Source: a virus
Taxonomy: Duplodnaviria > Caudoviricetes
Length of the DNA: 64,000 nucleotides
Virus record (IMG/VR): IMGVR_UViG_3300021185_002017
Strand: one strand, 5' to 3'
The notes beneath the pieces are model-generated. The model was not told where the DNA came from and did not search any database. It saw only the letters and a list, made by a program, of their open reading frames with translations. A program made the position numbers and the translations under genes. Shown here one piece after another: positions 7,287 to 61,968 of this stretch (position 1 is the stretch's first letter; each line of letters opens with the position of its first letter).

Positions 7287-7350
7287 ATTTACCTATATTT
7301 TTTTTACTGAAACTTAATATTGTCTATTAAAACGGGTGATAAATACCAAT

Positions 7351-8550
7351 ATGGGTATTAATATAGAGACTGTAGCACCGTTAGAACTATGTAGTGTAGG
7401 CTTAGTGTCGCAATTATGTGGTTTGCCTAGTTATACTAATTACGCATTAGGCTACCAATTTAAACATGTAAAAGAAGTAATTGGCGATAGTGTTATTAAA
7501 CAATTAGCAGATCATAATATCACATTGGGCACAAAGTTTGGAGGCGCAGGTGTTGATCCTAGGATATTATTAACTAACGAGCCCGATGATAGTTACTACG
7601 AAATATGTGCTAGGCAACTATTAGAACTTCCATGGCCAAAACACAAAATAGCAAAGTTATTAAACAAGCATAAATTAATTATAAGAGATTTTGTTGAAGG
7701 TGGCTTCTTTATAACTAGAGTACTTAACGAACTTGCTGAGGAAGTTGCACAGGCAAGAGACATTATATATGCGTATGCAGTAGCAACACACAACACAGGC
7801 AACTGGAACTTAGATAGTATACCAGCAAACAAACGATTAGAAATACCGATAGTAATTTACGGTGTTGGTACATATTATCAAAAGAGTAACCTTGTTACCA
7901 CAGGTGCCAAGCCCACAAACAAGTTTTTAGTACCAGTACACAAAGCAAGGCACTGGCGTGTAGAAGCACTTTCTATACTTGAAGAAAAAGGTATTTTACA
8001 AGATGCGGATTGGAGTTTGCATTATATTAACAAAGATCAAGTTACTAGGATAAATTCTTTTACTGGTAGTCCTAACCTTAGAAATCGTTTACACGACAAT
8101 GATGTTGAGACTGTTATAGTAGATCAATTTATTAATAAGCATAAACATGAACTACCAAAAGGGTTGCCGTATGATGATGCAGTTATATTTTCTGATCATA
8201 TGAATTTAAATTCTAACTGGCAAGAGTACGAATGGTACATTGGTATTGAAACGCACAATGACAAGTTTTTAATTACTGAAAAATGTTTGAAAGGATTTGT
8301 ATTAGGATTGCCTTCTGTTATAATATCTACTAAAAACTTTAATCAACATTTATCCAATTTTGGTTTTGAGATGCAAGGTAACTACGACTATGCAGATACA
8401 CTCAACGAGAGAATATCTTTAGCATCAGAGTTTATAAAAACAAACAAAGGCGACAAGGATATAGCAAGACACAATCAAGAATTATTAAGGAACAATGAGT
8501 TCTTATCTTCTTTAATTGTAAAACCGCTTGTGGAACTTTTGGGAGTATAG
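7351..8550 (+). CDS. putative glycosyltransferase-like protein (ITEK family)
   Basis: WYIGIETHNDKFLITEK..LPSVII; start placed at ATG 5 nt after ATAAATA. Confidence 0.55.
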   Translation: MGINIETVAPLELCSVGLVSQLCGLPSYTNYALGYQFKHVKEVIGDSVIKQLADHNITLGTKFGGAGVDPRILLTNEPDDSYYEICARQLLELPWPKHKIAKLLNKHKLIIRDFVEGGFFITRVLNELAEEVAQARDIIYAYAVATHNTGNWNLDSIPANKRLEIPIVIYGVGTYYQKSNLVTTGAKPTNKFLVPVHKARHWRVEALSILEEKGILQDADWSLHYINKDQVTRINSFTGSPNLRNRLHDNDVETVIVDQFINKHKHELPKGLPYDDAVIFSDHMNLNSNWQEYEWYIGIETHNDKFLITEKCLKGFVLGLPSVIISTKNFNQHLSNFGFEMQGNYDYADTLNERISLASEFIKTNKGDKDIARHNQELLRNNEFLSSLIVKPLVELLGV

Positions 8551-8659
8551 TGGCCCCCACTCGTCAGTGAGGGAAGCCAACTACGTTCTAAACTTCATAG
8601 TATATCATCATATAGTACTGTGATCGGCCGTCGCCGGGCACACAGTAACGCCCTATAAT
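8551..8659. other. GC-rich cluster of four hairpins between convergent genes (terminator or ncRNA)
   Basis: TGGC..GCCA, CATAGTA/TACTGTG, CGGC/GCCG and GGGC/GCCC stems. Confidence 0.5.
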
Positions 8660-8662
8660 TGT

Positions 8663-9139
8663 TTAACTAAATTTTACTTTAGTATGGTCGTTAAGTTCAA
8701 CAGTTGCACTATTATGCTCGTGTTCTCTTACTGTAGTCTTTTGTACCCAACATCTTCCATTTGTTAATTCTTTAACAATTTCATCTGCTTTGTCAAAAGC
8801 CATTTCAGCAAATCTTTCACAACCTGTATGCGATACTACTCGCATATCAATTAGACCTTTGTCTTGTAACATTTGAATAGTTTCCATTTCTGGGTCATTC
8901 TCTGCTACTAAGTAAGTATGATCAAACATGTGCTTCAACCATTCTTTAAGTGGCTTCAAACCACCAAAGTCTACTATCCAGTTACGCTCATCAAGTTCGT
9001 CTCCACCGAAAGTAAATTCGAACTGCAAAGCATAGCCATGAATTAAATTGCAATGACTATCAGCTCGCCATTGTCTAAACGCACAACTGTGTCCAGTTGA
9101 ATGCGAATATGTTTTACCTGAATAAAATCTCTTATTCAT
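8663..9139 (-). CDS. queD: 6-carboxytetrahydropterin synthase (QueD/PTPS)
   Basis: HSCAFRQW..HCNLIHGY, VDFG, FDH, CERFA, VREH motifs. Confidence 0.9.
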   Translation of the reverse strand: MNKRFYSGKTYSHSTGHSCAFRQWRADSHCNLIHGYALQFEFTFGGDELDERNWIVDFGGLKPLKEWLKHMFDHTYLVAENDPEMETIQMLQDKGLIDMRVVSHTGCERFAEMAFDKADEIVKELTNGRCWVQKTTVREHEHNSATVELNDHTKVKFS

Positions 9140-9220
9140 TTGTATCTCCTAAATAATTAGAAGGCCATTAGTGCGGAATATTTATAGTGGGTCGATGCCT
9201 TAATGTTTCCATCCACTTGG
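9140..9220 (-). promoter_or_regulatory. structured queD leader with SD-sequestering hairpin and internal late box TATAAATA
   Basis: CTTCTAA pairs with TTAGGAG; upstream hairpin loop ATTAAGGC is complementary to GCCTTCTAAT. Confidence 0.5.
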
Positions 9221-9224
9221 TAAT

Positions 9225-15593: not shown

Positions 15594-15782
15594 TTAACTT
15601 GTTAGTAAGTCTATTGCTTGTTGTGTTTGTTCAGGTGTTGGAACAGTGTTAGTTACAGGGCTCTCAAATGCATGTAATATCTGTAGTGCTTTGCTATACA
15701 GCTCTTCTGTGCTGTTAGCAGTCATTATGACGGTGTCGTTGTCAACAATGCAATATTTTTCGTCTATAACCATCAAATTCAT
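15594..15782 (-). CDS. hypothetical protein
   Basis: ATG 5 nt after ATAAGTA box. Confidence 0.55.
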   Translation of the reverse strand: MNLMVIDEKYCIVDNDTVIMTANSTEELYSKALQILHAFESPVTNTVPTPEQTQQAIDLLTS

Positions 15783-15896
15783 ATAAGTACTTATATACAA
15801 ATACACCTCAATAATAATATTTTTGATTAACACATTTTAATTTTTTGATAAATATATAGAACATAACAACAACTCTATCAGCAGGAATCAAATACC

Positions 15897-17796: not shown

Positions 17797-18081
17797 ATGT
17801 TAGACACTATATCAGCGATGCTCAGCGACAGGCTGTGGATCTACACTGCAATTGCAGGCGCACTTTTAGGTGCGGCATTCTTAGCATGGTTCAAAGGAAC
17901 AAGAGCAGGTTTATGGTGTTATAGTAAATTTGACCAGTTCTTAGATTACCTAGTGCAACGCTGGGGATGGACATGGTTAGCAGAAGATGAAAATGCATGG
18001 CGCAAACGCTATCCTAAAGTTACTGCAAAAATTGATGATCTCGAAGCAAGACTTGCTAAACTAGAAAACAAAAAAAAGTAA
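17797..18081 (+). CDS. small membrane protein
   Basis: N-terminal TM helix, C-terminal coiled coil. Confidence 0.65.
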   Translation: MLDTISAMLSDRLWIYTAIAGALLGAAFLAWFKGTRAGLWCYSKFDQFLDYLVQRWGWTWLAEDENAWRKRYPKVTAKIDDLEARLAKLENKKK

Positions 18082-18111
18082 TTATTTAACTCTGTTGTCA
18101 TAAGTAGTTGT

Positions 18112-18762
18112 ATGGCTAGGTATTATGGAAACAGATTGTCAAAAGGTCCTGCTTGGACCGAAGAACCCTTTACTCATATTACGCATGAATTTTGGCCAGA
18201 TAAATCAAGTATGCTTGCCGAGGCAATGTCTGTGAGAGAAGATAACGATCATAGATTTCAACTACCCTTAAAATTTGATAATAGTCGCCCACATCTAACA
18301 CAAGGTGCTACAGGTGTAACTTTAGATTGGTCTAGAATGCAAGAAAAAACACCTTTGCTAAAAGAATATTATGAAAATTTTTTAAACTGGATTGGCAGTG
18401 ACCTAGGAAGGACTACATGCCACTACTTCCACATTGATGCTGGTGCAACATATAGTTGGCATGTAGATAATGTACAAAGTGGTCGTGTAGTAGAAGGAAC
18501 GTCCGATGGTTTTAGAAGACCTTATGATACCTCTCCTGTGAATTGCTGTATTAATTTAGTTATTACAGACGATCAAACAACAGTTGAATTCAACCCTTCG
18601 GAAATAGTTGGATACAAATATGAGTGTGGAATATTAAACACATCAGAATATCATAGAGTATATCCAACCAAGTATAGAGTACTTGCAAGAATATCTTTTT
18701 ATGATTTATTATACGAAGAAGTTGTACACAAAGTCAGAAGACAGGAGAAAAAATTACAATGA
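18112..18762 (+). CDS. cupin/2OG-Fe(II) oxygenase-like protein
   Basis: WHVD..INLVI..LNTSEYHRV (HxD..H triad). Confidence 0.55.
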   Translation: MARYYGNRLSKGPAWTEEPFTHITHEFWPDKSSMLAEAMSVREDNDHRFQLPLKFDNSRPHLTQGATGVTLDWSRMQEKTPLLKEYYENFLNWIGSDLGRTTCHYFHIDAGATYSWHVDNVQSGRVVEGTSDGFRRPYDTSPVNCCINLVITDDQTTVEFNPSEIVGYKYECGILNTSEYHRVYPTKYRVLARISFYDLLYEEVVHKVRRQEKKLQ

Positions 18763-19409: not shown

Positions 19410-19570
19410 TAGATTGGATTAAGGCAAGAGTAAAAGAAAGAACAAGTTGGGACGGTGGTGTTATCATCGCTGGATCATTAGCAATCATATTGTTTGGTGG
19501 CATTGTTAAAATTGCAGCATGGGCTGGTTTAGCATATGGTATCTGGGCAATAGCAACCAAAGAAGGATAA
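19406..19570 (+). CDS. small two-TM membrane protein
   Basis: hand-translated MIDWIKARVKERTSWDGGVII.. 54 aa, GAGG SD. Confidence 0.6.
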   Translation: MIDWIKARVKERTSWDGGVIIAGSLAIILFGGIVKIAAWAGLAYGIWAIATKEG

Positions 19571-19955: not shown

Positions 19956-19982
19956 GTTTGTATTTAGAAGATAAATACTGTT

Positions 19983-22097
19983 ATGAAAATACATAATATC
20001 ACAGAAGGTTATTACGACGACAATCCAAAAGCAGATCCTAAGGTTGTAGATAAATTTGCAGGTGTCGCAGACAGCCAACGTTCATATTACATTATGAAAT
20101 GGGCTGAAGAAAAAGGTATCGATAGCGATGATGCTATGTACATGGCAGGCTATGTACAAGACGGCTACATAGGTGCTGGTGCTTGGAACTGGCGTTATGT
20201 CGGACTAGACGAAGCAAAAGCAAATCCAATGATTATGAATCGCGATGGTAAGGAAATTGAACTTACTAAATCCGGCGATTCAATGAAACCTAAATTTCAC
20301 TTAAAAATTAATGGCGAAGATCATGGCACATTTGATTCTGAGAAAGCTGCAATGCAACATTCAGCAAGACTAAAAGAATCTGCAAATATGCAAGACATGT
20401 TTGATGAACTGAGAATTGACGACAACACACATATAATTGACGGCAACAAAGAACTCACACTTGCTGATGTTGGCATTGGTTATTGGGGGTTAGGTTATGA
20501 CAGAGATGGCCGTTGTTTTGAAATGAGTAAAAGTAGCAGAGAAGATGCTAAAAATAGTATAACTGGTCATGGTGAATATAAAGTTTCTGACGCAGACATT
20601 ACTGATTTTGACGGCGCACGATATTATTGGAATGAGAATAGTCCGGACCATGGTCTACTCCACATAAAACAAATAAAAGAAGAATCAATTAAAGAAGCAG
20701 AAGAAGGAATGATTGGTGAACCAGATAACTGGTATGATGCTGAGCAAAGAAAAGAAGCATACGATCAATTACAAGATGCATTAACGGGCGGATTCGAAGA
20801 CGATTATATCAAAGATGGTACATGTCCAGAATGTGCTGGTTCAGGATACCTAGACGGCGACTATGAAGAGGAAGAAGATAGTTGTGACGGCTGGGGCAAT
20901 TACGGTTGTGACGAAGGCGAAATGCAATATGCTGATGATACTGTGAGCTGGAAAGAAATCAAAGATCACGATGAGAGATCCAAACAAAAAGCAGAACTTG
21001 CTAAGAAGCCACAACCTTCAGATGAAATATTAGCAGGTGCAATGAAACAGTTGCACAAAAATTATGTTGAAACTGGTAGATTTAATGCTATGGAATTACC
21101 AAGCATACTTAGACAAATGTATCCAGAAATCAGCAAACAAAAAGCCAGAGAAATTGGCGGTAAGTTCTTTAAGACTTTCGATACAATGAATGATGAAGAA
21201 CCAGTAACAGAAGCCGGTGCAGAAAAATGCTGGCCTGGACACAAGAAGGTTGGTACACAACCAGGTACAGGCAAAAACAAAGGCAAGCGTGTAAACAAGT
21301 GCAAGAAAATTGAATCTATTGACGAAAGCAGTGACGATGCAATGGTTGCTAAAATGTTAGCAAAAGCATTAGGTGACGAAAACCGTTGGACTGAAATGTC
21401 AGCACCAGAGCTATACGCAGAACTCGAAAGCACTAATCCAGATGTAGCAGACATGATTAGAAATCTTGCAAAGATGCTGTATGATGTCAGACTAGCAGAA
21501 AGAGCATACATAGATGTTGGTGTTGCAGACACAGTAAAAGATCAAAGAGGCAAAGAATTCCAATTTGACAAGAACACTAAAAAGTTTAAGTCACAAGACG
21601 GCGAAGAAGCAGATGTTAAAACTAAGTTAGGCAAAGACTTAATGAGAATTCGTAAGAATCAAATGAAAAAAACTTCGCCTAGTTATAAAACTAAAAAGAA
21701 TCAAGGCAGACCAGTAATGGCTTCTATTGAAGAGTCATATGGTCACACTGATGAAATAACACTAGAAGACAACGAAGACTTCAATGATATATTTGGTGTA
21801 CTAGGCTACAGTTTATGTGAGCAAGATACATTTGAAGCAGAATACCAAGGTCGTAAAGTTAAACTAAACAAACCTATGCAAGGCGATGTTAAGAAGTTTA
21901 AAGTTTATGTTAAAGATCCTAAAACAGGCAATGTTAAAAAAGTTAACTTTGGACACGGCGGAAGTAGTGCTAAAGGTAAAACAATGAAGATTAGAAAAAG
22001 TAATCCTAAAGCAAGAAAAAGTTTTAGAGCAAGACATAACTGTGATAACCCAGGACCTAAGACAAAAGCTCGTTATTGGTCATGTCGTAAATGGTAG
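19983..22097 (+). CDS. modular putative internal head polyprotein
   Basis: leader MKIHNITE; many (I/L/V)xE junctions; CxxCxGxG, KCWPG and KARYWSC modules. Confidence 0.6.
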   Translation: MKIHNITEGYYDDNPKADPKVVDKFAGVADSQRSYYIMKWAEEKGIDSDDAMYMAGYVQDGYIGAGAWNWRYVGLDEAKANPMIMNRDGKEIELTKSGDSMKPKFHLKINGEDHGTFDSEKAAMQHSARLKESANMQDMFDELRIDDNTHIIDGNKELTLADVGIGYWGLGYDRDGRCFEMSKSSREDAKNSITGHGEYKVSDADITDFDGARYYWNENSPDHGLLHIKQIKEESIKEAEEGMIGEPDNWYDAEQRKEAYDQLQDALTGGFEDDYIKDGTCPECAGSGYLDGDYEEEEDSCDGWGNYGCDEGEMQYADDTVSWKEIKDHDERSKQKAELAKKPQPSDEILAGAMKQLHKNYVETGRFNAMELPSILRQMYPEISKQKAREIGGKFFKTFDTMNDEEPVTEAGAEKCWPGHKKVGTQPGTGKNKGKRVNKCKKIESIDESSDDAMVAKMLAKALGDENRWTEMSAPELYAELESTNPDVADMIRNLAKMLYDVRLAERAYIDVGVADTVKDQRGKEFQFDKNTKKFKSQDGEEADVKTKLGKDLMRIRKNQMKKTSPSYKTKKNQGRPVMASIEESYGHTDEITLEDNEDFNDIFGVLGYSLCEQDTFEAEYQGRKVKLNKPMQGDVKKFKVYVKDPKTGNVKKVNFGHGGSSAKGKTMKIRKSNPKARKSFRARHNCDNPGPKTKARYWSCRKW

Positions 22098-22730: not shown

Positions 22731-22751
22731 TATTTCCCCATAAATACATGC

Positions 22752-23953: not shown

Positions 23954-24485
23954 AATTGCTATTACTGGACACACTAATGGAATTGGACAAGCATTATTTG
24001 ACAATCTTAGCAAAAATCACAAATGTCGTGGCTTTAGTAGATCTAACGGTTTTGATATAACTAAAAATAACAACTTATTATTAAATGGAATAGCACGATG
24101 TGATGTTTTTATCAATAATGCATACGCCGAAGATGCTCAAATGAAACTATTAATGCATGTTTTCGACATTTGGCAAAATGACAGCACAAAAACTATAGTA
24201 AACATATCAAGTTCAAGTAAATATCCAGGACATTCGTTCAATCTTTCAGGATATCCAGGATACAAAGCCGCCCTTTCTCATCAAGCAGGCATAATGCAAC
24301 AGATGAACCACAGGCTATGTCGAATTATAAATGTAAATCCGGGATATATTGATACTCCTAGAGTCGGCATGGTAGATAAACCAAAACTAACGACTCAAGA
24401 ATGTGCTGACATCATTATATTTGCAATAGAACAACCACAGCACATAGAAATTGGTGAATTAGGCTTTTGGATTATTGATAAATAG
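23946..24485 (+). CDS. short-chain dehydrogenase/reductase
   Basis: ITGHTNGIG, FINNA, YPGYK, NVNPG. Confidence 0.85.
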   Translation: MSKIAITGHTNGIGQALFDNLSKNHKCRGFSRSNGFDITKNNNLLLNGIARCDVFINNAYAEDAQMKLLMHVFDIWQNDSTKTIVNISSSSKYPGHSFNLSGYPGYKAALSHQAGIMQQMNHRLCRIINVNPGYIDTPRVGMVDKPKLTTQECADIIIFAIEQPQHIEIGELGFWIIDK

Positions 24486-24490
24486 TAGTT

Positions 24491-26830
24491 ATGAAACAGG
24501 TTATCATTTATCCAGGTAGATTCCAGCCAATGCTTTCGCATCATGCAGAAGTATACAGCCAATTACAAACTCAGTTTCCAGAAGCTGATGTATATATTGG
24601 AACCAGTGACAAAGTAGAAAGTGGTAAATCACCTTTTAACTTTAAAGAAAAGCAAATGATAGCCAATGCACACGGCATTGATCCAAGTAAAGTTTTACTA
24701 GCAAAAAGACCTTATCACAAAGATGATTATCCTTTTGATGAGGACAATACTGTTATAATTTTTGCTGTTGGTGAGAAAGACTTAGACAGATTTCCTTTTA
24801 ATAATGTAGATCCTGAGACTGATTTGGATATGACCGTTCGCGGAGAACCAAAGCCAAAGTACTATCAGAAGATAAATACATATAGAACGGATCCAAAGCC
24901 AATGGCTGAAAGAGGATACATAACACTTGCACCAACTATTAAAACAGGTGATGAAATTGCAAGTGCTAGTGCTTTTAGAGATGCATTAAAGAATGCTCCA
25001 GATAAAGAAAGTGCTGAAAAAGTATACACTAAGCAATTTGGAAACTTTGATCCAAAAATATTTGAACTAATATACAATAAAATTACAGGGCAAAATGAAA
25101 TGAAAGAAGAAATTAATAGAATTAGAAAACTTGCAGGTTTAGAGCCTGTTATGGAAAGTTTTGACCCTGCAATGGAACCATCTAGAGAAGATGAAATGTA
25201 TGACGAATTACTTACAGCATATGAACAAGGCGAACAGCAGTTAGCAAAAGCAATGGGCATAAGCGAACAAGAACTTGATCAGGAAATGACTGAGTTTGCA
25301 ATGGACCATGGCTTACATATGGACGACGACAGAGATGAAGTAGTTCACGGTTATATAGAACAAGTAGTTGCTGATGCAGATCACAAAGAATACGAAAGTG
25401 TTGAATTAGAAGCAGAAGCAGTAGCACCAGAAGGCGAACAGCCAGAGCAACCAGAAGAAGGTGAAAAAGTCATTCCTGTTAACAAGCCAATCTCATTAAG
25501 AGGTGATAGCATTTGGGACGAAGATGGTAAAAACCCTGAGTCAGTAAATGTTACAGAAGTTGCTATAGATAAAGACATGGACGAAGATGATTATGCACAT
25601 GTTAGTGTTTCGCATGATGGTCCATGGACAGTATACACCGATTCAGGTTTTGAAGCAGAAATATCTAAAATAGTAGGCTTTGATGTACAGTTTACTGAGC
25701 AAGGCATGCAAGAAGAAGGCCAAGCAAGTCTAGAAGGAAACACTGAAGATTCAGTAGGTATGCAAGAAGAATTAGATAGATTAACTAGTTTATCAGGAAT
25801 AGAAGAAGCACCTATGCCAGACTTTGACAAAGGCGAAAGACCTAAAACAAGTAAAGAACGTGCAGCTTACCGTAAGTGGAAGAAATCTAATGCGGCAGGT
25901 AAAAAAGATGATGATGCACCTTTAACAATCTCTCCAAAAGATCGTAAAGATGCTGAAGCAAGACCTGCAAATGCAGCAGCGGCTGATCCTGCAAAAGCAG
26001 AATTTACAGATATCACTTTAAAAGGAATGAAAGTAGACGGTAAATCTATACCAAGCAGTCAACGAGCTAAAAGTATTGCTAATCAATTCCCAGAAGATGC
26101 TGACTTAAATGATCCAGCAATTAAAAAAGAAGTTTTCTTAAAGTTTACTGCAAAAAGACCAGATTTAATGTTTGGTGAAATTAATGCTCGTATATCTAAT
26201 GACGCAGAAGGTTTAGCAATAAGCGATAGACTTAGTCCAATTGTAAGACAGTTAGAAGATAGCCGTAATATTATGGAACTAGAGCCAGAAGATAAATCAT
26301 TTGCTCTTAAGATTTTAAACAATGCAATACATAATATGGATTTAGTTAAATCTACTGAGATAGATAAGCAAATTGATGTAGAGCCAATGCAATTAGACAC
26401 TGACGACGAAGATGAAAAAGAATACGATGATGATGCAATGGTACCAGTACTAGATATGGAAGACGATGCTGAATTTGAAAAAGAAAGTTTAGATCTATCT
26501 AGCATAAGAGATGAGTTTGGTGTAAATGAAGGCAGATTAAAAGACATTATCCAAGACGCAATGGACATGTCTAAAGAAGAATTTGATGCTGAATACAAAG
26601 GCCAATACGACTACGATCAAATACAAAAAGAATACGGCGACGAAGCAATAGACGAAGGTGGCGAGAAGTGTCCACAATGCGGAATGGTAGATTGCCCATG
26701 TGAGCCAGGTGAATGTGACTGTGATCCAGTTGAAGAACAATCAGAAGTGATTGAAGACATAGTTGACGAAGCAGTTGAAAACACAATTGATGTTGCAATT
26801 AACGAGTTAAAGCAACTAGCAGGCATTTAA
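24491..26830 (+). CDS. nucleotidyltransferase-like domain fused to acidic modular region
   Basis: YPGRFQP..H N-terminus; repeated RLxxLAGL motifs; C-terminal Cys cluster. Confidence 0.65.
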   Translation: MKQVIIYPGRFQPMLSHHAEVYSQLQTQFPEADVYIGTSDKVESGKSPFNFKEKQMIANAHGIDPSKVLLAKRPYHKDDYPFDEDNTVIIFAVGEKDLDRFPFNNVDPETDLDMTVRGEPKPKYYQKINTYRTDPKPMAERGYITLAPTIKTGDEIASASAFRDALKNAPDKESAEKVYTKQFGNFDPKIFELIYNKITGQNEMKEEINRIRKLAGLEPVMESFDPAMEPSREDEMYDELLTAYEQGEQQLAKAMGISEQELDQEMTEFAMDHGLHMDDDRDEVVHGYIEQVVADADHKEYESVELEAEAVAPEGEQPEQPEEGEKVIPVNKPISLRGDSIWDEDGKNPESVNVTEVAIDKDMDEDDYAHVSVSHDGPWTVYTDSGFEAEISKIVGFDVQFTEQGMQEEGQASLEGNTEDSVGMQEELDRLTSLSGIEEAPMPDFDKGERPKTSKERAAYRKWKKSNAAGKKDDDAPLTISPKDRKDAEARPANAAAADPAKAEFTDITLKGMKVDGKSIPSSQRAKSIANQFPEDADLNDPAIKKEVFLKFTAKRPDLMFGEINARISNDAEGLAISDRLSPIVRQLEDSRNIMELEPEDKSFALKILNNAIHNMDLVKSTEIDKQIDVEPMQLDTDDEDEKEYDDDAMVPVLDMEDDAEFEKESLDLSSIRDEFGVNEGRLKDIIQDAMDMSKEEFDAEYKGQYDYDQIQKEYGDEAIDEGGEKCPQCGMVDCPCEPGECDCDPVEEQSEVIEDIVDEAVENTIDVAINELKQLAGI

Positions 26831-26832
26831 CA

Positions 26833-29767: not shown

Positions 29768-30065
29768 CGTCTGATTTCCTAAATAGTTTTCTAATACTTT
29801 CAAATAACGGCGTTACATTGTTGTATTTCTCGTTATAATGAATATATAGATCATCTAGTGGTCCAGTTTCAATAACATCGCCCTTATTGTACACTACACC
29901 ATCGTGCTCAATGCCATCACGCAAAAATTCAATATGTGTTCCACCATGGTTAAACCATTTAGTCATTCGGCCACCGCCTGCTTCTAAAGCAGAAATCTTG
30001 TCGCCTTCTTCGATGTATTCCATGATTTCCATGTATTCCATAACTTTATCTGTATACTGTCCCAT
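29751..30065 (-). CDS. hypothetical protein
   Basis: ORF directly after sigma70 promoter. Confidence 0.65.
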   Translation of the reverse strand: MGQYTDKVMEYMEIMEYIEEGDKISALEAGGGRMTKWFNHGGTHIEFLRDGIEHDGVVYNKGDVIETGPLDDLYIHYNEKYNNVTPLFESIRKLFRKSDDGDQS

Positions 30066-30071
30066 AATGAT

Positions 30072-30100
30072 ATTATACTATAATCTCCGTTGTTTGTCAA
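30072..30100 (-). promoter_or_regulatory. sigma70-type promoter
   Basis: TTGACA-17 nt-TATAAT. Confidence 0.8.
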
Positions 30101-33323: not shown

Positions 33324-34014
33324 TATATTTGTCTAAGTCCTCTGGTGTTCCAATAAAATGTATTTCGTTATCATCAATCATGTAGTCGCCAACTGTTAAG
33401 CCGTCTTCGATTAAATAATTATATGTAGCACTAATGTAAAACTCGTTTAATGATCTATTATCTTCTGCTATCATTCTTTTACCTGCGCCGACAAAGTCTG
33501 AGCCGTGTTTCCAATAGTGTATTCCTGTTAATGCATTGTTACTGATTACTTCCTTCTCAACAACTTTTGTTACAAAGGTAGACTCAGTGTCTAATAACGC
33601 ATAACTATGTTTAGGATTATCGTCGTCTATGGTAACAAGTCCTGCATCAAACATTCTTAATCGTGTAATAGCAGGTAACGAATTCCATTCCATAACTTGA
33701 TCGCAATTAGCAATAATTAGTTCTTCATCATTGTTAATGAGATCTTCTAGTAATAATACAGATTGAACAGCACCGTCTGTTACATAATCTATAACAGTAA
33801 ATGTACAGTTAGGCGTAAGTAGTTCTAGTTCTTCTTGTATAGTACTAGTATATTCGTGTGCTGGTAAAATATAATGATATGTTCCTGCTAAGTCAAGTGT
33901 TTTTACAGCAAGGGCAATCATAGACATACCGTCAACTTTTATGTACGGTTTTGGTTCAGTGTATAGCGGCTTAAATCTACTGCCAGCGCCTGCTGCAGGA
34001 ATGATTATGTTCAT
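33310..34014 (-). CDS. sugar/polyol-phosphate nucleotidyltransferase
   Basis: IIPAAGAGSRF, PKP, ANCDQ, VEK, EFYIS, GTPEDL. Confidence 0.85.
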   Translation of the reverse strand: MNIIIPAAGAGSRFKPLYTEPKPYIKVDGMSMIALAVKTLDLAGTYHYILPAHEYTSTIQEELELLTPNCTFTVIDYVTDGAVQSVLLLEDLINNDEELIIANCDQVMEWNSLPAITRLRMFDAGLVTIDDDNPKHSYALLDTESTFVTKVVEKEVISNNALTGIHYWKHGSDFVGAGKRMIAEDNRSLNEFYISATYNYLIEDGLTVGDYMIDDNEIHFIGTPEDLDKYNGSK

Positions 34015-34038
34015 GCTACTATTTATTTGGCGAATATG

Positions 34039-35556: not shown

Positions 35557-35570
35557 GCGAACAAGTATTT

Positions 35571-35599
35571 ATTATACAGTCTTTGGGTATAACTGTCAA
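35571..35599 (-). promoter_or_regulatory. sigma70-type promoter for tRNA cluster
   Basis: TTGACA-17 nt-TATAAT. Confidence 0.8.
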
Positions 35600-36465
35600 C
35601 CTGGCAGTGAAACTATTTTTTGTAATTGTTCAAGTCCATAGAAAGTATTATCTCTGTCCTTTGTTATTCTCGAATCTGGATTACTAAACCATTTCTTTTC
35701 ATCTGCTTTTGCTAAATCTTTTGTGTAATTGCTAAAAGTACAATTAAATATTTTTTCTAAATAAACAACATGTTCAGTTGGTAACGGATGTATATCGTAT
35801 GTGTTTACTTTATACTTTGATTTAAGTAGTAACTCACGAGTTCTGTATTTGCTATACATCGCTGTTATTTCTGGTTCACTCTCTGTGTGTATTTTTACAA
35901 AGTTTTCCAATACATCACCGTATGAATTAGATGTCGGATATAACACACTAAGGAAACTTGGCAATGCTATTTTATCACTTATAGGAGACATTTGTAAATT
36001 AATACAAGTACATTTTAATGTATCTTGATATAGCAATGAGGATTCAATTGCTATTGCTGACTCTAGTTCTAGTGTTCTTTGTGTTTGGAATGATTGTATA
36101 CCCTCCATAACACTTTTTTTAAAATCAGTTGTTGCTCTTCCGTGTCCTTTCCATTTCTCAGTGATATCACCGTAGTGTTTCCATTCATTTGACTCACTCC
36201 AAAAACTATCACCAAGTACACTGAGTCTATTATGTCCAGTCCATTGTGTAATTACTAAATCATCTTCTGTGAGTTTATAAGTTTCATCAAGCAAAAACAA
36301 TTGGTTTTGTATGTACTTGTTACTTGCGCCGGAATGGCCTAAATTGTATAAAGGAATGTTTAATTCTTGTGATAGCACAGATGCCCAAGTAGGCCAATTA
36401 TTGTAGTTAGTAAAACTACAACCTATTGCAAACAGCCGGTTATACTTTTTGGAAAAGTCTATCAT
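35596..36465 (-). CDS. SGNH-like protein (GCSFT family)
   Basis: AIGCSFT..WPTW, GASN, DIHP. Confidence 0.6.
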   Translation of the reverse strand: MIDFSKKYNRLFAIGCSFTNYNNWPTWASVLSQELNIPLYNLGHSGASNKYIQNQLFLLDETYKLTEDDLVITQWTGHNRLSVLGDSFWSESNEWKHYGDITEKWKGHGRATTDFKKSVMEGIQSFQTQRTLELESAIAIESSLLYQDTLKCTCINLQMSPISDKIALPSFLSVLYPTSNSYGDVLENFVKIHTESEPEITAMYSKYRTRELLLKSKYKVNTYDIHPLPTEHVVYLEKIFNCTFSNYTKDLAKADEKKWFSNPDSRITKDRDNTFYGLEQLQKIVSLPG

Positions 36466-36488
36466 AGTAATATTTATTCGACCGAATG

Positions 36489-38547: not shown

Positions 38548-39057
38548 TTATACTAAAAATGACTCCCAACTTGGGTGTTTAATTGTGAATCCGAGTTGTT
38601 TTCTTTTAGCAACTAAATCCCAATAGTCTGGGCGATAAGGTGTGTGCAATGGTTTAATGTCCATTCTATTTGATTTAGAACTGTTGCATGGGTTACAAGC
38701 AGTAACAATATTAGTCCAAGAAGTTTTTCCTCCTTTGCTAATAGGAATTACATGATCTAATGTTAGTGTGCTTTGTGAAAAAGGCTTGGCGCAATATTGG
38801 CAAGTGAATAAGTCTCTGAGTTGAACGTTGTATTTTGAAAATCTAGGCTTACGGCCATGCCGGGCCATATTTTTTAGCATGATCACTGCCGGCACTTTAG
38901 TTTCCCAACTTTCACTACGAACTATCCAGTCGTCGTACCATTCAAGTACATTTACTTTGTCTAACCATAGGTATGTGATTGCTTCCTTCCATTGCACTGT
39001 TGAAGGAGGTAGCATTGAAATCGGCTGGCCATCTGCATTTAAAACAAGTGTATCCAT
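38548..39057 (-). CDS. HNH endonuclease (McrA-like)
   Basis: LVLNA, RDLFTCQYC, TLDHVIP, WTNIVTACNPCN. Confidence 0.9.
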   Translation of the reverse strand: MDTLVLNADGQPISMLPPSTVQWKEAITYLWLDKVNVLEWYDDWIVRSESWETKVPAVIMLKNMARHGRKPRFSKYNVQLRDLFTCQYCAKPFSQSTLTLDHVIPISKGGKTSWTNIVTACNPCNSSKSNRMDIKPLHTPYRPDYWDLVAKRKQLGFTIKHPSWESFLV

Positions 39058-39080
39058 TACTAGTATTTATTCCGTGTTGC

Positions 39081-39473
39081 TTACTTTATAAGTTCTGCTA
39101 GATTTAGCAAAACTGCTGTTCCTGTGATAGCACTGCCAATCATAATTGCTTTGTCGTTCCAACAATGACCAACATATATCCATGCTATACTACTAAGTGC
39201 ATAAGCAATTTTTCCCAAGGTCATAAAATCAGCACTTTGCAAGAATACGCCTATAACTGCTAAAATGGTTGCCGCCCATTTAACATAACTATCAACTGTT
39301 CCAGTTGGTGTTGCAGGACTCAAGTCTTCAACTTGAACCTGTAATTCTTCCATCTCTTGTCTAAGACGAGATCGTTCAGCGGCAAGTTCCATAGCAAGTC
39401 GGCCAGTTTTAGTCATAGTACTGCCCTCAAACTTTTCTTTAACTTCCTCTCTTATTTCTTGCGTCTTTTCCAT
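39081..39473 (-). CDS. coiled-coil plus membrane hypothetical protein
   Basis: N-terminal coiled coil, C-terminal hydrophobic helices. Confidence 0.7.
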   Translation of the reverse strand: MEKTQEIREEVKEKFEGSTMTKTGRLAMELAAERSRLRQEMEELQVQVEDLSPATPTGTVDSYVKWAATILAVIGVFLQSADFMTLGKIAYALSSIAWIYVGHCWNDKAIMIGSAITGTAVLLNLAELIK

Positions 39474-39495
39474 ATCACTATTTATTTGCTAAAAT

Positions 39496-40679: not shown

Positions 40680-41219
40680 TTACCTCTCAGTTATGTTGAA
40701 GTGTTTGTATGTTTGCTGTACACAAACTGCTTGCCAAAAGGCATCAGCATCAGCACTATGTAAGTCCTGTTGTATTGCTTTACGAGGATCGACAGGCATC
40801 ATGTTAAAGATTGTTCTACAATCCATGATCTGCCAAAATGCCCAACCTCTGTGATGTTCAAATTGCTTGAACAAGTTCTCAAGTATAACCATATCAAACT
40901 GAGGACCTTGACACCAAATTTTGTCAACACCAACAAGGAATTTGTTTAACTCAGCCATAAACTGTGCTAAAGGTATTCTACCTTCTTCGCTAAATGCTTC
41001 GTCTTGGATATGTGCTGGTTGCTTTGCCCACCACTCTAATGTGCTATCTAGCACACTGCGATCAGCAGTTGTTTGTGCATCAATCTCAGGCTTCCACAGC
41101 GTCTTAGCATGTGGCTCTGTAGACATAAATGGGTCAAATTTAACAGCACCCACTGATAATACTACACAGTCTGGTTCTGTTCCAAGTGTTTCGATATCTA
41201 TCATTGCGTGTGTTTTCAT
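40680..41219 (-). CDS. DEDD 3'-5' exonuclease/exoribonuclease
   Basis: MIDIETLG, WW, GPQFD, DCRT, HSADAD. Confidence 0.85.
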   Translation of the reverse strand: MKTHAMIDIETLGTEPDCVVLSVGAVKFDPFMSTEPHAKTLWKPEIDAQTTADRSVLDSTLEWWAKQPAHIQDEAFSEEGRIPLAQFMAELNKFLVGVDKIWCQGPQFDMVILENLFKQFEHHRGWAFWQIMDCRTIFNMMPVDPRKAIQQDLHSADADAFWQAVCVQQTYKHFNITER

Positions 41220-41225
41220 GCTGTT

Positions 41226-41254
41226 ATTATAACAGTCTCACACTTAAAAGTCAA
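41226..41254 (-). promoter_or_regulatory. sigma70-type promoter
   Basis: TTGACT-17 nt-TATAAT. Confidence 0.7.
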
Positions 41255-44947: not shown

Positions 44948-44998
44948 TTGTTACTCCTATGTGTATTATAGCAGTATTTATCTTAATTATGGCTGTTA

Positions 44999-48820: not shown

Positions 48821-49086
48821 CTTACTTCAACAGTTGGCGAACCGCTACTAACATTATGTCCACATGTAGCAGTACTTCCTTGTTTAGCAGGAATACCGCC
48901 GTCTGCTAACACTGTAGTTGCACCATTTGACACTAGTGTAGGCGAAGTATGTGGTGCTTTGCCATGAGGAGCAACCTTATCTCCTATTAAAGAAACTTTT
49001 TTATTATCAGCAAATACTGTTGATGCTCCAGGTCCTAGTATAACACCTTTTGCTGTATCTGTTTTTACTCTTGCTATCTTTGCCAT
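48817..49086 (-). CDS. PAAR-like tail spike tip (gp5.4-like)
   Basis: GD..PHG..H..S..V..G..ATCGH..SGS..V. Confidence 0.8.
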   Translation of the reverse strand: MAKIARVKTDTAKGVILGPGASTVFADNKKVSLIGDKVAPHGKAPHTSPTLVSNGATTVLADGGIPAKQGSTATCGHNVSSGSPTVEVS

Positions 49087-49094
49087 ACTACTAT

Positions 49095-49644
49095 TTATAT
49101 GATTATACTCGCCATTATTAGCAGTAACGATATAGAGCCTAAGAATGCAAAGCCTAATGCTATTGCTGTTATAAGAATTTGAAAGGGTGATGCAGTGTTA
49201 TGTTCTGACTTACCAACGCCTACTAGTAGTCTAAATGTGTTTCTAAAATAGGACACTATTTAATTTAAATACTGCTAACATAGAAAAGAATACTACTATT
49301 TGTATAACTGCTGGTATAACCACAAACAGTTGCATAGCACTAAAATCGCCTTTCATGAAATAGTCTGTTTTAAACCATTCTGCTTGTTCTTCGGGTGTTG
49401 CGTCTCTAACGATCATTTTTTGGTTCCAGGTAGTAAATATTATTGTCTACATCACGCAATCCACGCATTATGCCTGCTATACTATCTGTATTGGCAGCAA
49501 AGAGTAATATCATGTAACACATTGCATGTTTCATTATACTGCTGGAGTTAACGCAAGTATAGAGAATAAGAAAATACTGGACAGTGTAAATATTTCTAAG
49601 TCTTCGACTAACCTAGGGAAGTTGTTGTTGTATCTTTTTTTCAT
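49095..49644 (-). CDS. four coupled small hydrophobic ORFs (49534..49644, 49406..49534, 49243..49416, 49095..49256)
   Basis: hand-translated 36, 42, 57 and 53 aa ORFs with overlapping starts and stops. Confidence 0.45.
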
Positions 49645-54780: not shown

Positions 54781-57306
54781 TTAGTCTGGCCATCTTCGTG
54801 CAATATATCTAACTTGCACCGAACAGGCAGGACTTAATGTGTTATTAGTTTTTATAAATCCAGTTGTACCTGTTACACCACCAACAAAGTCTACATTACC
54901 TGTTAGTGTACCTGAACGAGCATCTGTATAGTTATCTGTTAATACAACATCGTTAATTGTTGTATCACCGGAATACATTAGTGTACCTACACGACGATAA
55001 TTGCCTGAACTAGTTGTGGCATGCATAGCATATTCTACAAATACAGTATTTAATTGTCCTTCACCTGGTGACATTGAAATGTCTAATTCGTTAACAGGAT
55101 TGTTTGTTCCTGTTGGCAATGTTAATTGCTCTGGTGTAGGGAAATCTGTTGTTGCTTGTCCTGCCGCTAGTGCCTCTGCTGTTAAGAACTCAATGTTTGT
55201 TTTGATATTCATTAATCCTCTTATATCAGGATTAGTTGATTCAAAGTATAAGTTGTTTAATATTTTTGCAAAGTCTCGAGCCTCTGTTCTTTCCTCAAAA
55301 TTCATCTCACCAATTGAACTGTTTAAGTTCAATGGCCAATCAGTAAACACAGGATTACCGCCTGTTGCTGTGGAGTTAAATTCTGCATTTATATATACAT
55401 CTTTAAATATATTAACAGTAGGATCATTTAATGTTTCGTTTAACCAATCTTCAAGTTTTGCTTTAACAGTTGCAGTTGGTCTATCGTATTCGTCGGCTCT
55501 AAGTCCTAATGCTGTTACTGTACTTGATGTATCTTCGTGTAACGCAAAAGTAAATGGTGTTTTTTGTACTGCTTCAGCATGTGTTATGTACATCTTGTCA
55601 GCTGCGCCAGGTATACTATTGATTCTGGGCCATAAGTTTGCACCATTAACAAGTGTTTGTACATCAGCGGGGGTTGATGCTGAGGCTAAGTTCATTGAAA
55701 CAACCGGTGTTGCTTCAACTGTAGCACTAGATATAACTGGAGTAAATGTTAAGTTTGTTACATTACCAGTTATGTTTGAACCAGTGTTTAAAATAAATGT
55801 GTTATCAGTAACAGCGGCAACTGTTTTAGTACCTGTTGGATTTGCTGCTTCATTGTTTGTTAATGTTACAGAACCGCCAACTGGATTACCGTGTCTTTCA
55901 CTGCTTACAACAACATTAGAAGCATCTTTATTCTTGTATGTTATATAGACTAAGTTAGCAGGGTCTGTGGCCATTGCAGAGTTAAATGCTATATCCAAAC
56001 TGATAGTTTTACTTACTGTACTAACCGCACCTGCTCCAATTGCTGTGTCAACATTTACTACAGTACCATCTAAGCCTGATACATTAGTACCACTTAAATC
56101 TATAAATTTAACACTATCAACAATTTGTGTATTCTCAACATTCTCAACTGTTATTCTTAACTTACTTCCAACACCAGCATCAGCGCCTGTTACTTGTCTT
56201 GTTAAACTTGCTGCATTACTTGGTATTGTAGCAGTAACTTCACCTGACGATAAATCGTAGTCTGAAATAGATAGTACCTTACCATCTGCTAGCCAATCAG
56301 TGCCACCTTTAATATATGTATGGTTATAAACTCCATTAGGATCATAATCCTCATTAGAATCTAATGAATAACTTCCAGCAAGTATGTTTGCTGATAAAGT
56401 AATATCAGATGCTGTTGCAACTGCTGTAACATTTTCTCTTACAGTGTCGTTCTTTGTTAAAAGTAATGTACCTAATGTCTGCGAAAAGTCTGCTGAGTTA
56501 GGTGCATACTTTACATCTGTTGCTACTTGTATGTGCTTAAATTGCATACCAATAAAGCCAATACCAATACCTTCTGCAACTCTAATATTATTGTTGTCTA
56601 ATTCTCTGTAAGATGTAATACCTTTTGAAGCATAAAAACCAGGCTGACTTGTTAAACCAATGTTAGCACTAGTTACTGCATTAATTACTGCGGCATTACT
56701 GTAATAAGAGATTGAAACTGCATCTGCTCCTGACGGAGGCGATCTAAATGTAAGTGTATGAGAGTGAGTAGAAACACTTTGACCTGTAGCAGATTGTTCA
56801 AAGAAGTAATCTTCTCCTGAACTAATTGATGCTACCTTAGATGGTACAGTAACAGTACCATTTTTAACTACTTGTAAATCAGTAGGAACAAAGGCTGAAC
56901 CTGTTATGTTGTTTACAAAACTTGCACCGGCATTAATATTACCAAATACTTTTCCTTCTCTACCAACTGTTGTGCCACTTGACGCAACTACTGTTGCCGG
57001 AGTCCAACTAACAACATTTGCAACACCGTCGAATTCACCTTTATCATAAATTTTATGAGGCACTGTAAATTTAACCATTTGTATATTAGCAAGACTTGCT
57101 GTTATACTTTGGGCACTTGCTGTTTTTTCAAATATACCTGTTTTATTGTATATATCTGAAACTGGATCTGTTGTGTCGGCGCCAATGTACAACTGTCTAC
57201 TATCTGTTGCGAATCCAAGTTCTCCTGGACGCAACGGCTTAGGGAGGTCTTGTTTCTGACCTCTGCGTTGTTGCATTCGTACGATTTTTGTTGTTTCTTC
57301 TGCCAC
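54781..57306 (-). CDS. tail fibre / baseplate-associated structural protein
   Basis: N-terminal QRRG..LRPGELGFATDSRQLYIG; T/S/V/G-rich 841 aa. Confidence 0.7.
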   Translation of the reverse strand: MAEETTKIVRMQQRRGQKQDLPKPLRPGELGFATDSRQLYIGADTTDPVSDIYNKTGIFEKTASAQSITASLANIQMVKFTVPHKIYDKGEFDGVANVVSWTPATVVASSGTTVGREGKVFGNINAGASFVNNITGSAFVPTDLQVVKNGTVTVPSKVASISSGEDYFFEQSATGQSVSTHSHTLTFRSPPSGADAVSISYYSNAAVINAVTSANIGLTSQPGFYASKGITSYRELDNNNIRVAEGIGIGFIGMQFKHIQVATDVKYAPNSADFSQTLGTLLLTKNDTVRENVTAVATASDITLSANILAGSYSLDSNEDYDPNGVYNHTYIKGGTDWLADGKVLSISDYDLSSGEVTATIPSNAASLTRQVTGADAGVGSKLRITVENVENTQIVDSVKFIDLSGTNVSGLDGTVVNVDTAIGAGAVSTVSKTISLDIAFNSAMATDPANLVYITYKNKDASNVVVSSERHGNPVGGSVTLTNNEAANPTGTKTVAAVTDNTFILNTGSNITGNVTNLTFTPVISSATVEATPVVSMNLASASTPADVQTLVNGANLWPRINSIPGAADKMYITHAEAVQKTPFTFALHEDTSSTVTALGLRADEYDRPTATVKAKLEDWLNETLNDPTVNIFKDVYINAEFNSTATGGNPVFTDWPLNLNSSIGEMNFEERTEARDFAKILNNLYFESTNPDIRGLMNIKTNIEFLTAEALAAGQATTDFPTPEQLTLPTGTNNPVNELDISMSPGEGQLNTVFVEYAMHATTSSGNYRRVGTLMYSGDTTINDVVLTDNYTDARSGTLTGNVDFVGGVTGTTGFIKTNNTLSPACSVQVRYIARRWPD

Positions 57307-57377
57307 TGTTAAGCCTCTCTAATTACTTACTTAACAGTATTTATCACTTTGAGTGACTAAACTTTATTATAATAGTC

Positions 57378-59269: not shown

Positions 59270-59270
59270 G

Positions 59271-60578: not shown

Positions 60579-60638
60579 TTTTATTAATCCCAGGTATTAA
60601 ATTCTCTATTACTGTTATTTATCATCTTTGTGAACATT

Positions 60639-61028
60639 TTAGTTGAACCGTTTGAGTTCGTCTTTGGTATAATTGAACTTACATATTGTATCAAACAGTC
60701 TTGCTTCAACTACTTGGGATTTTGTAAAGTCTTTTGTGTTTTTTATAGTGTGTCTATAGAACATTATGTCGTTTTTACACCTATAATACTGTCCCATTAG
60801 CCCTTCTAACTTAATTTTAATAGTTATACTAGGTGCTTTTCCTTTATTACGAAGTCTGCATAAGTATGATGCAACACATTTCATTGGAATTTCTGTTGCT
60901 ACTAAAGATTTAGTAATGTGCTCTTGCACAGCAAATGAATCGTTATGTTTGGTTACAACATACACACCTTTTTTAGCAACATTAGTGGCTATAGTGTCTA
61001 ATTGCTTGGTAAGTCTTTGCTTGTTCAT
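60639..61028 (-). CDS. hypothetical protein
   Basis: ATG 5 nt after ATAAATA. Confidence 0.65.
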   Translation of the reverse strand: MNKQRLTKQLDTIATNVAKKGVYVVTKHNDSFAVQEHITKSLVATEIPMKCVASYLCRLRNKGKAPSITIKIKLEGLMGQYYRCKNDIMFYRHTIKNTKDFTKSQVVEARLFDTICKFNYTKDELKRFN

Positions 61029-61051
61029 ATAGGTATTTATGAACTGGTGTT

Positions 61052-61273
61052 CTATAATTTTTGTTTTGCTGAGTATATAATGTAGCACTCACACCCATTT
61101 TTGTTTACTTTATTGAAAATATTTTTTTGATGCATTACATCACAGAGATGTGCATCACGCTCAGACAGTTCATTTAATTTTAAACCGCCAAACAGTTCAG
61201 CCTGATCATATAGTTGTGTTTCAAACTTGTTAATTAGACTTAAGATGTTATCTTTACCTTTTACTGCTTTCAT
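61052..61273 (-). CDS. hypothetical protein
   Basis: coupled to upstream gene. Confidence 0.65.
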   Translation of the reverse strand: MKAVKGKDNILSLINKFETQLYDQAELFGGLKLNELSERDAHLCDVMHQKNIFNKVNKNGCECYIIYSAKQKL

Positions 61274-61947
61274 ATCTTTTGCTGATGCCTTGACTTTTTA
61301 GGCTTACCGTATCCGCCTGTTTGTAAAGTAGCCTCGGCATGCATTGCTGCCATGTGCTTCTTATATTTTTTAGTGCCTTTTTTATGTGGGCTTTTGCCTT
61401 CAGGCATAGTATCTTTGATATCTTTAACCATATCAGGATGTCTAAATTTGCGTAAAATCATTGATTCTATTTGTCGTGTTCTTTCTCTAGTAATACCAAA
61501 CATTTTGCCAACATCTTCTAAACTATGTTGGTCCTCACCGTCAAGTCCATATCGTAAGGCTATAAGTTTTCTTTCTGCAGGTTTTAGTGTATCTAACATT
61601 TTAGAAAGTTTTTCATTTCTCTGCCTGTCCCTTATGTCTTTATCTAAGTCTTGATCGTATGTTAAGTCGTCATCGTCGAATGAATCAAAGTCTTGTGCTT
61701 TGTTTACAGGATCTCTATCATCTAAATGTGGCATAGGTTGTTGCCTGTAAGTTTTGCCATCTGGATTATACAGAGATGCTTGTTGATTTGCATTTGCTTC
61801 GCTTGTTTTTTTCTTCTTTTTCTTTTTAGGAGTTGTATTAGCAAACACACTTGCATTAGGTCTTTTTTGCATAGCACCCATAGGAGCTGCAACGGTAGCA
61901 ATACCACCTGCACTAGTTGTTTCTTGAATAATATCGTTGATCTTCAT
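61270..61947 (-). CDS. modular protein with free-standing sigma70 region 4 HTH
   Basis: LRYGL..SLEDVGKMFGITRERTRQIE..LRKFRHP; leader MKINDIIQE. Confidence 0.85.
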   Translation of the reverse strand: MKINDIIQETTSAGGIATVAAPMGAMQKRPNASVFANTTPKKKKKKKTSEANANQQASLYNPDGKTYRQQPMPHLDDRDPVNKAQDFDSFDDDDLTYDQDLDKDIRDRQRNEKLSKMLDTLKPAERKLIALRYGLDGEDQHSLEDVGKMFGITRERTRQIESMILRKFRHPDMVKDIKDTMPEGKSPHKKGTKKYKKHMAAMHAEATLQTGGYGKPKKSRHQQKI

Positions 61948-61968
61948 AGTAGTATTTACCGTTTTTAA

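Follow-up and report, generated by a model that had tools for sequence, protein, structure and literature searches.

The described systems closest to the one reported here are of two kinds. The late promoters of phage T4 consist of a box, TATAAATA, which lies at -13 to -6 relative to the transcription start (Nolan et al. 2006, PMC1524935), roughly one turn of the helix ahead of it (PMC2988020), and they are associated with the late sigma factor gp55, the co-activator gp33 and the sliding clamp gp45. Leaderless messenger RNAs (mRNAs) are known from phages as well: the lambda cI mRNA made from pRM is the classical leaderless mRNA of E. coli, and 70S ribosomes bind its 5'-terminal AUG (PMC10491246), while in the Thermus phages phiYS40 and Lalka27a the first base of most transcripts is the A or G that opens the initiator codon (bioRxiv 10.64898/2026.04.20.719267, citing earlier phiYS40 work). 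Leaderless phage genes are known, and T4 late promoters are textbook matter. In a 64,000-nucleotide (nt) stretch of an uncultured marine, T4-like tailed virus, IMG/VR record IMGVR_UViG_3300021185_002017 (hereafter the window, meaning this whole stretch), the two appear to be joined: a box of the T4 late type, (A/G)TAA(A/G)TA, stands 5 or 6 nt before the ATG of a whole series of genes, and we consider it likely that the boxes at 5 nt are T4-type late promoters driving leaderless mRNAs.

An earlier note on this DNA had listed 13 starts that follow such a box after 5 or 6 nt and lack a Shine-Dalgarno (SD) sequence. Direct reading of all 13 bore the list out, SD pairing being weak, with [AG]TAA[AG]TA followed by 5 nt (11 sites; this spacing is termed N5, and others correspondingly) or 6 nt (24491 and 39057) and then ATG. 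Five sites lie on the plus strand (ATG 7351, 18112, 19983, 22752 and 24491) and eight on the minus strand (ATG 15782, 34014, 36465, 39057, 39473, 49086, 61028 and 61947); the box reads [AG]TAAATA at 11 of them and ATAAGTA at 2 (18112 and 15782). A fourteenth site, at ATG 7280, was added. For comparison, 43 related IMG/VR loci (527 kb; contigs numbered with L below) were gathered via homologues of the 704-amino-acid (aa) protein encoded in the window at 19983-22097. The 14 sites are as follows, ORF standing for open reading frame.

7278..7292, minus strand: GTAAATA box (7286-7292), N5 (tgtat), ATG 7280 of gene 5700-7280; the added site
7339..7353, plus strand: ATAAATA box (7339-7345), N5, ATG 7351 of gene 7351-8550 (399 aa), which has no Pfam or PHROGs match
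15780..15794, minus strand: ATAAGTA box (15788-15794), N5, ATG 15782 of the 62-aa ORF 15594-15782; the L004 orthologue has ATAAGTA-N5-ATG
18100..18114, plus strand: ATAAGTA box, N5, ATG 18112 of gene 18112-18762; the L004 homologue has ATAAGTA-N5-ATG
19971..19985, plus strand: ATAAATA box, N5, ATG 19983 of the 704-aa gene 19983-22097; N5 is kept in L003, L004, L006 and L008
22740..22754, plus strand: ATAAATA box, N5, ATG 22752 of gene 22752-23423; L003 has GTAAATA-N5-ATG and L004 CTAAATA-N5-ATG
24478..24493, plus strand: ATAAATA box that overlaps the preceding gene's stop, N6, ATG 24491 of the 779-aa gene 24491-26830, with a cytidylyltransferase-like N-terminus; orthologues in L003, L004, L007, L008 and L009 have N5 boxes
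34012..34026, minus strand: ATAAATA box (34020-34026), N5, ATG 34014 of the nucleotidyltransferase gene 33310-34014, which heads a co-directional array extending to 30097
36463..36477, minus strand: ATAAATA box, N5, ATG 36465 of gene 35596-36465 (289 aa)
39055..39070, minus strand: ATAAATA box, N6, ATG 39057 of the HNH endonuclease gene 38548-39057
39471..39485, minus strand: ATAAATA box, N5, ATG 39473 of the DUF6552 gene 39081-39473
49084..49098, minus strand: ATAAATA box, N5, ATG 49086 of the PAAR-motif gene 48817-49086
61026..61040, minus strand: ATAAATA box, N5, ATG 61028 of gene 60639-61028, with the start at 61028 and not at the upstream GTG 61088
61945..61959, minus strand: GTAAATA box, N5, ATG 61947 of gene 61270-61947; the L013 homologue has ATAAATA-N5-ATG

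As the earlier note had proposed, box-to-ATG spacings were set against those in shuffled sequence. The pattern RTAARTA-N5-ATG (R being A or G) occurs 13 times in the window, versus 1.60±1.18 times (maximum 5) in 300 dinucleotide-preserving shuffles, and the histogram of spacings shows a single spike, with 13 ATGs at a spacer of 5 nt and 0-3 at the others between 0 and 17 nt, the mean count over the other spacers from 0 to 40 nt being 1.97. When an ORF of at least 50 aa was required, 12 sites remained at N5 and 2 at N6, while the remaining spacers between 0 and 20 nt had 0-2 each. The enrichment claimed for 5 to 6 nt is thus upheld for N5, over the shuffles and over neighbouring spacers alike, and not for N6 alone, which is found 2 times with 1.6 expected; the two N6 sites do, however, stand before long ORFs, and the orthologues of these have N5 boxes.

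Overall, the heptamer is no more frequent in the window than expected (RTAARTA 88 vs 81±9 and ATAAATA 25 vs 28±5 in the shuffles); it is its placement that departs from expectation, since 21 of the 25 exact ATAAATA lie at most 70 nt upstream, and in the sense orientation, of a gene or tRNA start, where 5.6% would be expected (binomial p=5e-23). The spacers between these boxes and the starts are bimodal: 5-6 nt at 8 sites, 9 nt before tRNA-Ala and 22-61 nt at 11 sites, with none of 10-21 nt among the window sites. About half of the window's ATAAATA boxes are followed by leaders of 22-61 nt, so not all late-box genes are leaderless, and the genes behind the long spacers carry an SD (examples are those at 57306, of 841 aa, 44947, an esterase, 50070, 10367 and 9139). 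Because the box precedes an untranslated tRNA and, at a distance, SD-bearing genes, we read it as a transcription signal and not as a ribosome-binding site. Three boxes that stand farther than 6 nt from their starts can be described more closely.

57307..57344, minus strand: late box (57338-57344) and 31-nt leader with GAGAGG before the 841-aa gene 54781-57306; a pyrimidine followed by A stands at the N5 position
44948..44981, minus strand: late box and 27-nt leader with AGGAG before the esterase/lipase gene 44141-44947
35557..35599, minus strand: perfect sigma70-type promoter TTGACA-17-TATAAT, its -10 element overlapping the late box 35566-35572 (TATAATAAATA), 9 nt before tRNA-Ala (35481-35556)

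The product of the 841-aa gene weakly matches a PHROG virion structural protein and Pfam Mtd_N. The composite element at 35557-35599 may serve the tRNA cluster as a promoter both early and late. Upstream of tRNA-Met (39854) and tRNA-Thr (43840) there are weaker boxes, GTAAATA, and at 44021-44088 on the minus strand a late box and an AAGGAG SD stand before a 56-aa ORF with a TTG start (43851-44021), which is antisense to an 87-aa ORF on the plus strand (43870-44133).

The same spacing recurs in the 43 related contigs, which hold 67 N5 sites, 64 of them before ORFs of at least 50 aa; no other spacer exceeds 7 sites, and N5 exceeds N4 and N6 by more than 15 to 1. The orthologues of genes 19983, 22752, 24491, 7280, 15782, 18112 and 61947 keep the box, the 5 nt and the ATG while the spacer sequence and the flanks change. 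In the more distant L001 and L005, the homologue of gene 19983 has a late box followed by a leader of 24-29 nt with an SD-like site; the occurrence of leadered and N5 forms of one gene therefore points to an evolutionary switch between the two modes in which the promoter was kept. HTVC008M, a cultured SAR11 phage (pelagimyophage), extends the pattern: 14 of its 34 TAAATA-N2-9-ATG matches are at N5, where 1 in 8 is the control expectation, and 12 of these 14 sites coincide with annotated starts, mostly of baseplate and tail genes, namely gp010, gp014 (CsgF), gp019, gp020 (tape measure), gp025 (DNA end protector), gp026 (head closure), gp027 (baseplate tail tube cap), gp053 and gp063 (baseplate wedge), gp092, gp093 (tail completion) and gp190. 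A box with an SD leader precedes the portal and prohead core scaffold/protease genes of this phage, the sheath gene has a box about 60 nt upstream together with an AGGAG SD, and the major head gene has an AGGAG SD. This split suggests that minor virion parts and enzymes are leaderless and abundant structural proteins SD-led, and hence a role in dosage. The annotation of HTVC008M includes a late sigma factor (gp55-like), a late promoter transcription factor (gp33-like) and a sliding clamp (gp45-like); among the related contigs, gp55 was found in L012, L020, L022, L032, L033, L035 and L036, and gp33 in L015.

Two boxes stand back to back in both genomes. In the window, at 7278-7353, two divergent late boxes occupy a 70-bp gap, each 5 nt from its own ATG (7280 on the minus strand and 7351 on the plus strand), and in HTVC008M a divergent pair of the same layout lies at 18914-18945, between the DNA end protector and head closure genes. 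The start at 7280 is supported by homologues that begin MLFG... behind N5 (L004) or N8 (L002 and L005) boxes. At four genes of the window the start of the longest ORF (GTG or an upstream ATG) differs from the start placed by the box, the pairs being 7336 and 7351, 7286 and 7280, 15833 and 15782, and 61088 and 61028; the longest-ORF starts are probably wrong there, as both the box-N5-ATG rule and the homologues favour the downstream ATG.

Taken together, the window, HTVC008M and the 43 contigs provide 54 distinct N5 gene families. In a logo built over them, in which the core heptamer is fixed by the search pattern, C or G is preferred at -5 and T at -4, and this extension after the box is common to the N5 and the leadered classes and is seen in T4 boxes too. 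The first T of the octamer (-13) is not conserved, being G or T; such variability has been reported for other T4-like phages (PMC1524935). No -35 element was found, as no position between -37 and -13 exceeds 0.36 bits of information in the 54 families, and a weak AT-rich patch is present at -21 to -17 of the N5 starts, 5-9 nt upstream of the box (0.2-0.36 bits per position). Duplication of a single cassette, a promoter with a leader peptide, was rejected as the origin of the N5 sites, given at most 0.43 bits after the ATG and 54 peptide families.

If the T4 geometry holds, the last A of the box lies at -6 and the spacer fills -5 to -1, which would therefore make the A of the ATG the +1 position at N5 sites. 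In 52 of the 54 families the ATG follows directly on a T or C, and within the window a pyrimidine is found there in 13 of 14 box genes versus 28 of 62 other ATG genes (Fisher p=0.001). Bacterial RNA polymerase usually prefers start sites with a pyrimidine at -1 and a purine at +1, and translation supplies no reason for this combination. A pyrimidine followed by A is also present at the N5 position in 6 of 8 leadered ATAAATA boxes before protein-coding genes, which suggests that leadered and N5 boxes use the same start point, the transcript then continuing into a leader instead of TG.

On the translational side, the box genes have a mean anti-SD duplex energy over -20 to -3 of -0.66 kcal/mol, versus -3.78 for the other 79 ORFs, many of which show a clear AGGAG-type SD; only 5-6 nt are available between box and ATG at sites with the leaderless layout. 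Start codons other than ATG are nearly missing at this spacing: with an ORF of at least 50 aa, GTG or TTG at N5 is found in neither the window nor HTVC008M and a single time in the 527 kb of relatives, the counts for ATG being 12 (window), 64 (relatives) and 10 (HTVC008M). Leaderless translation depends on a 5'-terminal AUG (Brock et al. 2008, as cited in PMC5312081), which the near-exclusive ATG at N5 fits. The proposal of the earlier note that these mRNAs begin at or next to the AUG has therefore held in its sequence-level predictions, that is in spacing, promoter behaviour, T4 geometry and SD absence.

The trait is not shared by T4-like phages in general. T4 itself has 0 of 22 ATAAATA-N0-20-ATG matches at N5, and no N5 peak was seen in the TAAATA-N2-9-ATG matches of Syn9 (3/26), S-PM2 (5/22), P-SSM2 (5/36), P-SSM4 (4/25), S-ShM2 (0/7) or KVP40 (2/13), all of them near 1 in 8; Mosig (11/51) and Melnitz (5/23) showed a modest excess only. 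As the controls lack the peak, N5 is a property of this marine clade and HTVC008M. The likeness to T4 late promoters extends to the core ATAAATA, the frequent C/G-T extension, the lack of a -35 element, the placement before virion genes and the gp55, gp33 and gp45 homologues in relatives; in the window the box precedes virion and assembly genes (PAAR and two PHROG virion-structural genes, one match being weak), and in HTVC008M tail, baseplate and head genes. However, T4 boxes run into AGGAG leaders, whereas here about half of the boxes abut the ATG, and the T at -13 is not conserved in this phage group. The late promoters of marine cyanomyophages (NATAAATA; Syn9, S-PM2, P-SSM2, P-SSM4 and S-ShM2) are alike in family (Kyanoviridae), box and gp55 homologue, but differ in that they form no N5 peak (17 of 116 TAAATA-N2-9-ATG matches, again near 1 in 8). 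The Thermus phages are a case of a genome-wide leaderless strategy in a phage, yet they are unrelated, have a Thermus host and use other promoters, with a -10 of the host type or a late element TAGGGT; in the present group the leaderless layout would concern a part of the late class only, and the start codon is essentially always AUG. With lambda cI the likeness is that the promoter sets the start at the A of the AUG; there, in contrast, one regulatory gene and a sigma70 promoter are concerned, whereas here dozens of genes, a phage late sigma factor and few sigma70 promoters would be.

Two perfect sigma70-type promoters of the window also abut start codons.

30063..30100, minus strand: TTGACA-N17-TATAAT, N6, ATG 30065 of gene 29751-30065, which has no family
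41217..41254, minus strand: TTGACT-N17-TATAAT, N6, ATG 41219 of gene 40680-41219, an Rv2179c-like 3'-5' exoribonuclease (PF16473, 1e-32 range)

With the -10 hexamer at -12 to -7 and 6 nt to follow, +1 would therefore fall on the A of the ATG at both sites. In the related contigs TATAAT-N6-ATG forms a smaller peak (14 versus a mean of about 3.5 at other spacers), so the leaderless layout also occurs to some extent outside the late class. Leaders of 27-35 nt with an SD follow the remaining good sigma70 promoters of the window; the earlier statement that sigma70-driven genes are mostly SD-led is correct with these two exceptions.

The window is densely coding, has 37% G+C and carries 12 tRNA genes, both ribonucleotide reductase subunits, a PAAR gene and many ORFs without a family. 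No near relative was found among sequenced phages: megablast of 19983-26830 against a phage collection gave no match, tblastn with the 779-aa protein (24491-26830) gave two weak partial matches only. An exact 30-mer from gene 19983 had no match in metagenome contigs. Marine metatranscriptome runs contain 61-76% of the sampled words of 17800-27200, a figure that we do not count as evidence. Gene 61270-61947 (minus strand), which lies behind one of the late boxes with leaderless layout, encodes a 225-aa protein with a lone sigma70 region-4 domain (PF04545, 49.5 bits). On the same strand, 3445-3840 encodes a 131-aa protein with a ribosomal protein S21 domain (PF01165, 48.6 bits, residues 33-84) and N- and C-terminal extensions; its promoter is a perfect TTGACA-17-TATAAT followed by a leader of 35 nt that contains the SD-like caggaa. 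An S21 is encoded by HTVC008M as well. A search of genome contigs with the S21 protein of the window returned one distant match in a Pseudomonadota metagenome-assembled genome, uninformative on the host. The anti-SD region is supported by bS21, and in E. coli leaderless translation is favoured when bS21 is lost (PMC10491246). A link between the phage S21 and the leaderless class is possible.

We propose the following sequence of events. The (A/G)TAA(A/G)TA box would be a T4-type late promoter read by the host RNA polymerase with a gp55-like late sigma factor; at an N5 spacing the A of the ATG would be the first transcribed base, so that the mRNA starts 5'-AUG, and a ribosome carrying the initiator tRNA would bind this terminal AUG and translate without an SD. 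The same promoter would drive a second set of genes through leaders of 22-61 nt with an AGGAG-type SD, splitting the late class between two translation modes. Mostly, 21-30 nt separate the ORFs with leaderless layout from the co-directional gene or tRNA before them; since these ORFs have no SD and follow closely on an upstream gene, read-through transcripts should translate them poorly, and this would tie their expression to the firing of the late promoter. T4 gates its late genes e, soc, 49 and I-TevI by hairpins that sequester the ribosome-binding site in early read-through transcripts. The end would be the same here, an ORF translatable only from the late-promoter transcript; the means would differ, the read-through RNA having no ribosome-binding site at all and no hairpin. 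The dependence on gp55, the leaderless translation and the gating role are inferred.

Several other explanations were weighed against leaderless late mRNAs. The late promoter could be real and the ORFs nevertheless owe their translation to longer polycistronic mRNAs produced by read-through, with coupling or SD-independent internal initiation, the spacing then being a matter of genome compaction. Most N5 genes do lie in co-directional arrays, 21-30 nt behind the previous gene or tRNA, and tight intergenic space would press a promoter against the next start; such pressure, however, would be expected to give a spread over 0-10 nt and not exactly 5 nt, and it sits badly with the lack of 10-21 nt spacers, the near-exclusive ATG, the pyrimidine at -1 and the missing SD in a genome that uses AGGAG elsewhere. 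The two divergent pairs (7286-7345, and 18914-18945 in HTVC008M) have, moreover, no upstream co-directional gene. We regard this explanation as unlikely, though it is the strongest of the competitors. That the heptamer is instead a non-SD translation signal (for instance an enhancer of the S1 or A-rich type, or a ribosome-binding motif peculiar to the phage) which does not set the mRNA 5' end seems to us less probable again. A-rich non-SD motifs near starts occur in some bacterial groups, 5-6 nt is also the usual SD-to-start spacing, and a phage-encoded bS21 homologue could alter initiation; but the identical heptamer with its C/G-T extension is found 22-61 nt before AGGAG-bearing genes and 9 nt before tRNA-Ala, it equals the T4 late-promoter core, and ribosome-binding motifs are spread in their spacing, unlike the dominance of N5 over N4 and N6 in the relatives.

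Processing of the RNA would likewise yield leaderless mRNAs, though not primary ones, if the box were an AU-rich site at which an endonuclease trims polycistronic RNA before the AUG. AU-rich single-stranded sequences are typical RNase E targets, and many of the sites are inside co-directional gene arrays, yet the exact match to the T4 late promoter, the pyrimidine-A signature at a fixed 5 nt, the divergent back-to-back pairs in very short intergenic regions and the lack of a -35-like or structural context leave little room for this explanation. As to chance, or an artefact of composition in an AT-rich genome, a heptamer that is not itself over-represented might seem to invite that view; it is refuted by the shuffles (13 N5 sites versus 1.6), by the ORF-filtered spacing and by the positional enrichment (p=5e-23), and the pattern is replicated in the 43 contigs and HTVC008M and absent from T4 and the cyanophages, so that we give it almost no credence. 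Some observations nevertheless weigh against late promoters with leaderless mRNAs. No homologues of gp55, gp33 or gp45 were found in the 64-kb window. The genes behind N5 and N6 boxes have mixed functions (HNH, nucleotidyltransferase, PAAR and unknowns), and their designation as late rests on the promoter motif. The 6-nt spacers at two sites and the 8-nt spacers in some homologues would give leaders of 1-3 nt unless the start shifts. Finally, the transcription start, which very probably is the A of the ATG, has been placed there from T4 geometry, conservation and the -1 pyrimidine.

In the literature searched, which did not extend to the Syn9 differential RNA sequencing study (PMC5029184), we found no report of leaderless late genes in T4-like phages, cyanophages or pelagiphages, where the word leaderless occurs only in citations of a gene finder, and no paper that combines TATAAATA with leaderless. 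What appears to be new is the joining of the two known elements, late promoters abutting start codons as a class. Late-promoter prediction has been reported as unsuccessful in pelagimyophages (PMC7029224), a failure that the N5 layout may explain. The layout also offers a simple rule for calling starts in marine T4-like phages, which improves four ORFs of the window (7351, 7280, 15782 and 61028). From it one would expect efficient translation of leaderless mRNAs by the ribosomes of these abundant marine hosts, and it points to a way in which a T4-type phage could adjust the amounts of its proteins and couple translation to late transcription; as HTVC008M is cultured on Pelagibacter HTCC1062, the idea is directly testable. 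More tentatively, and with considerable doubt on our part, leaderless initiation might act as a timing gate that keeps early or middle read-through RNA silent for these ORFs, with the early-expressed, extended bS21 homologue (3445-3840) retuning host ribosomes between SD-dependent and leaderless initiation. Should this be true, a hitherto undescribed translation programme with two channels would operate in SAR11-type marine hosts and their T4-like phages.

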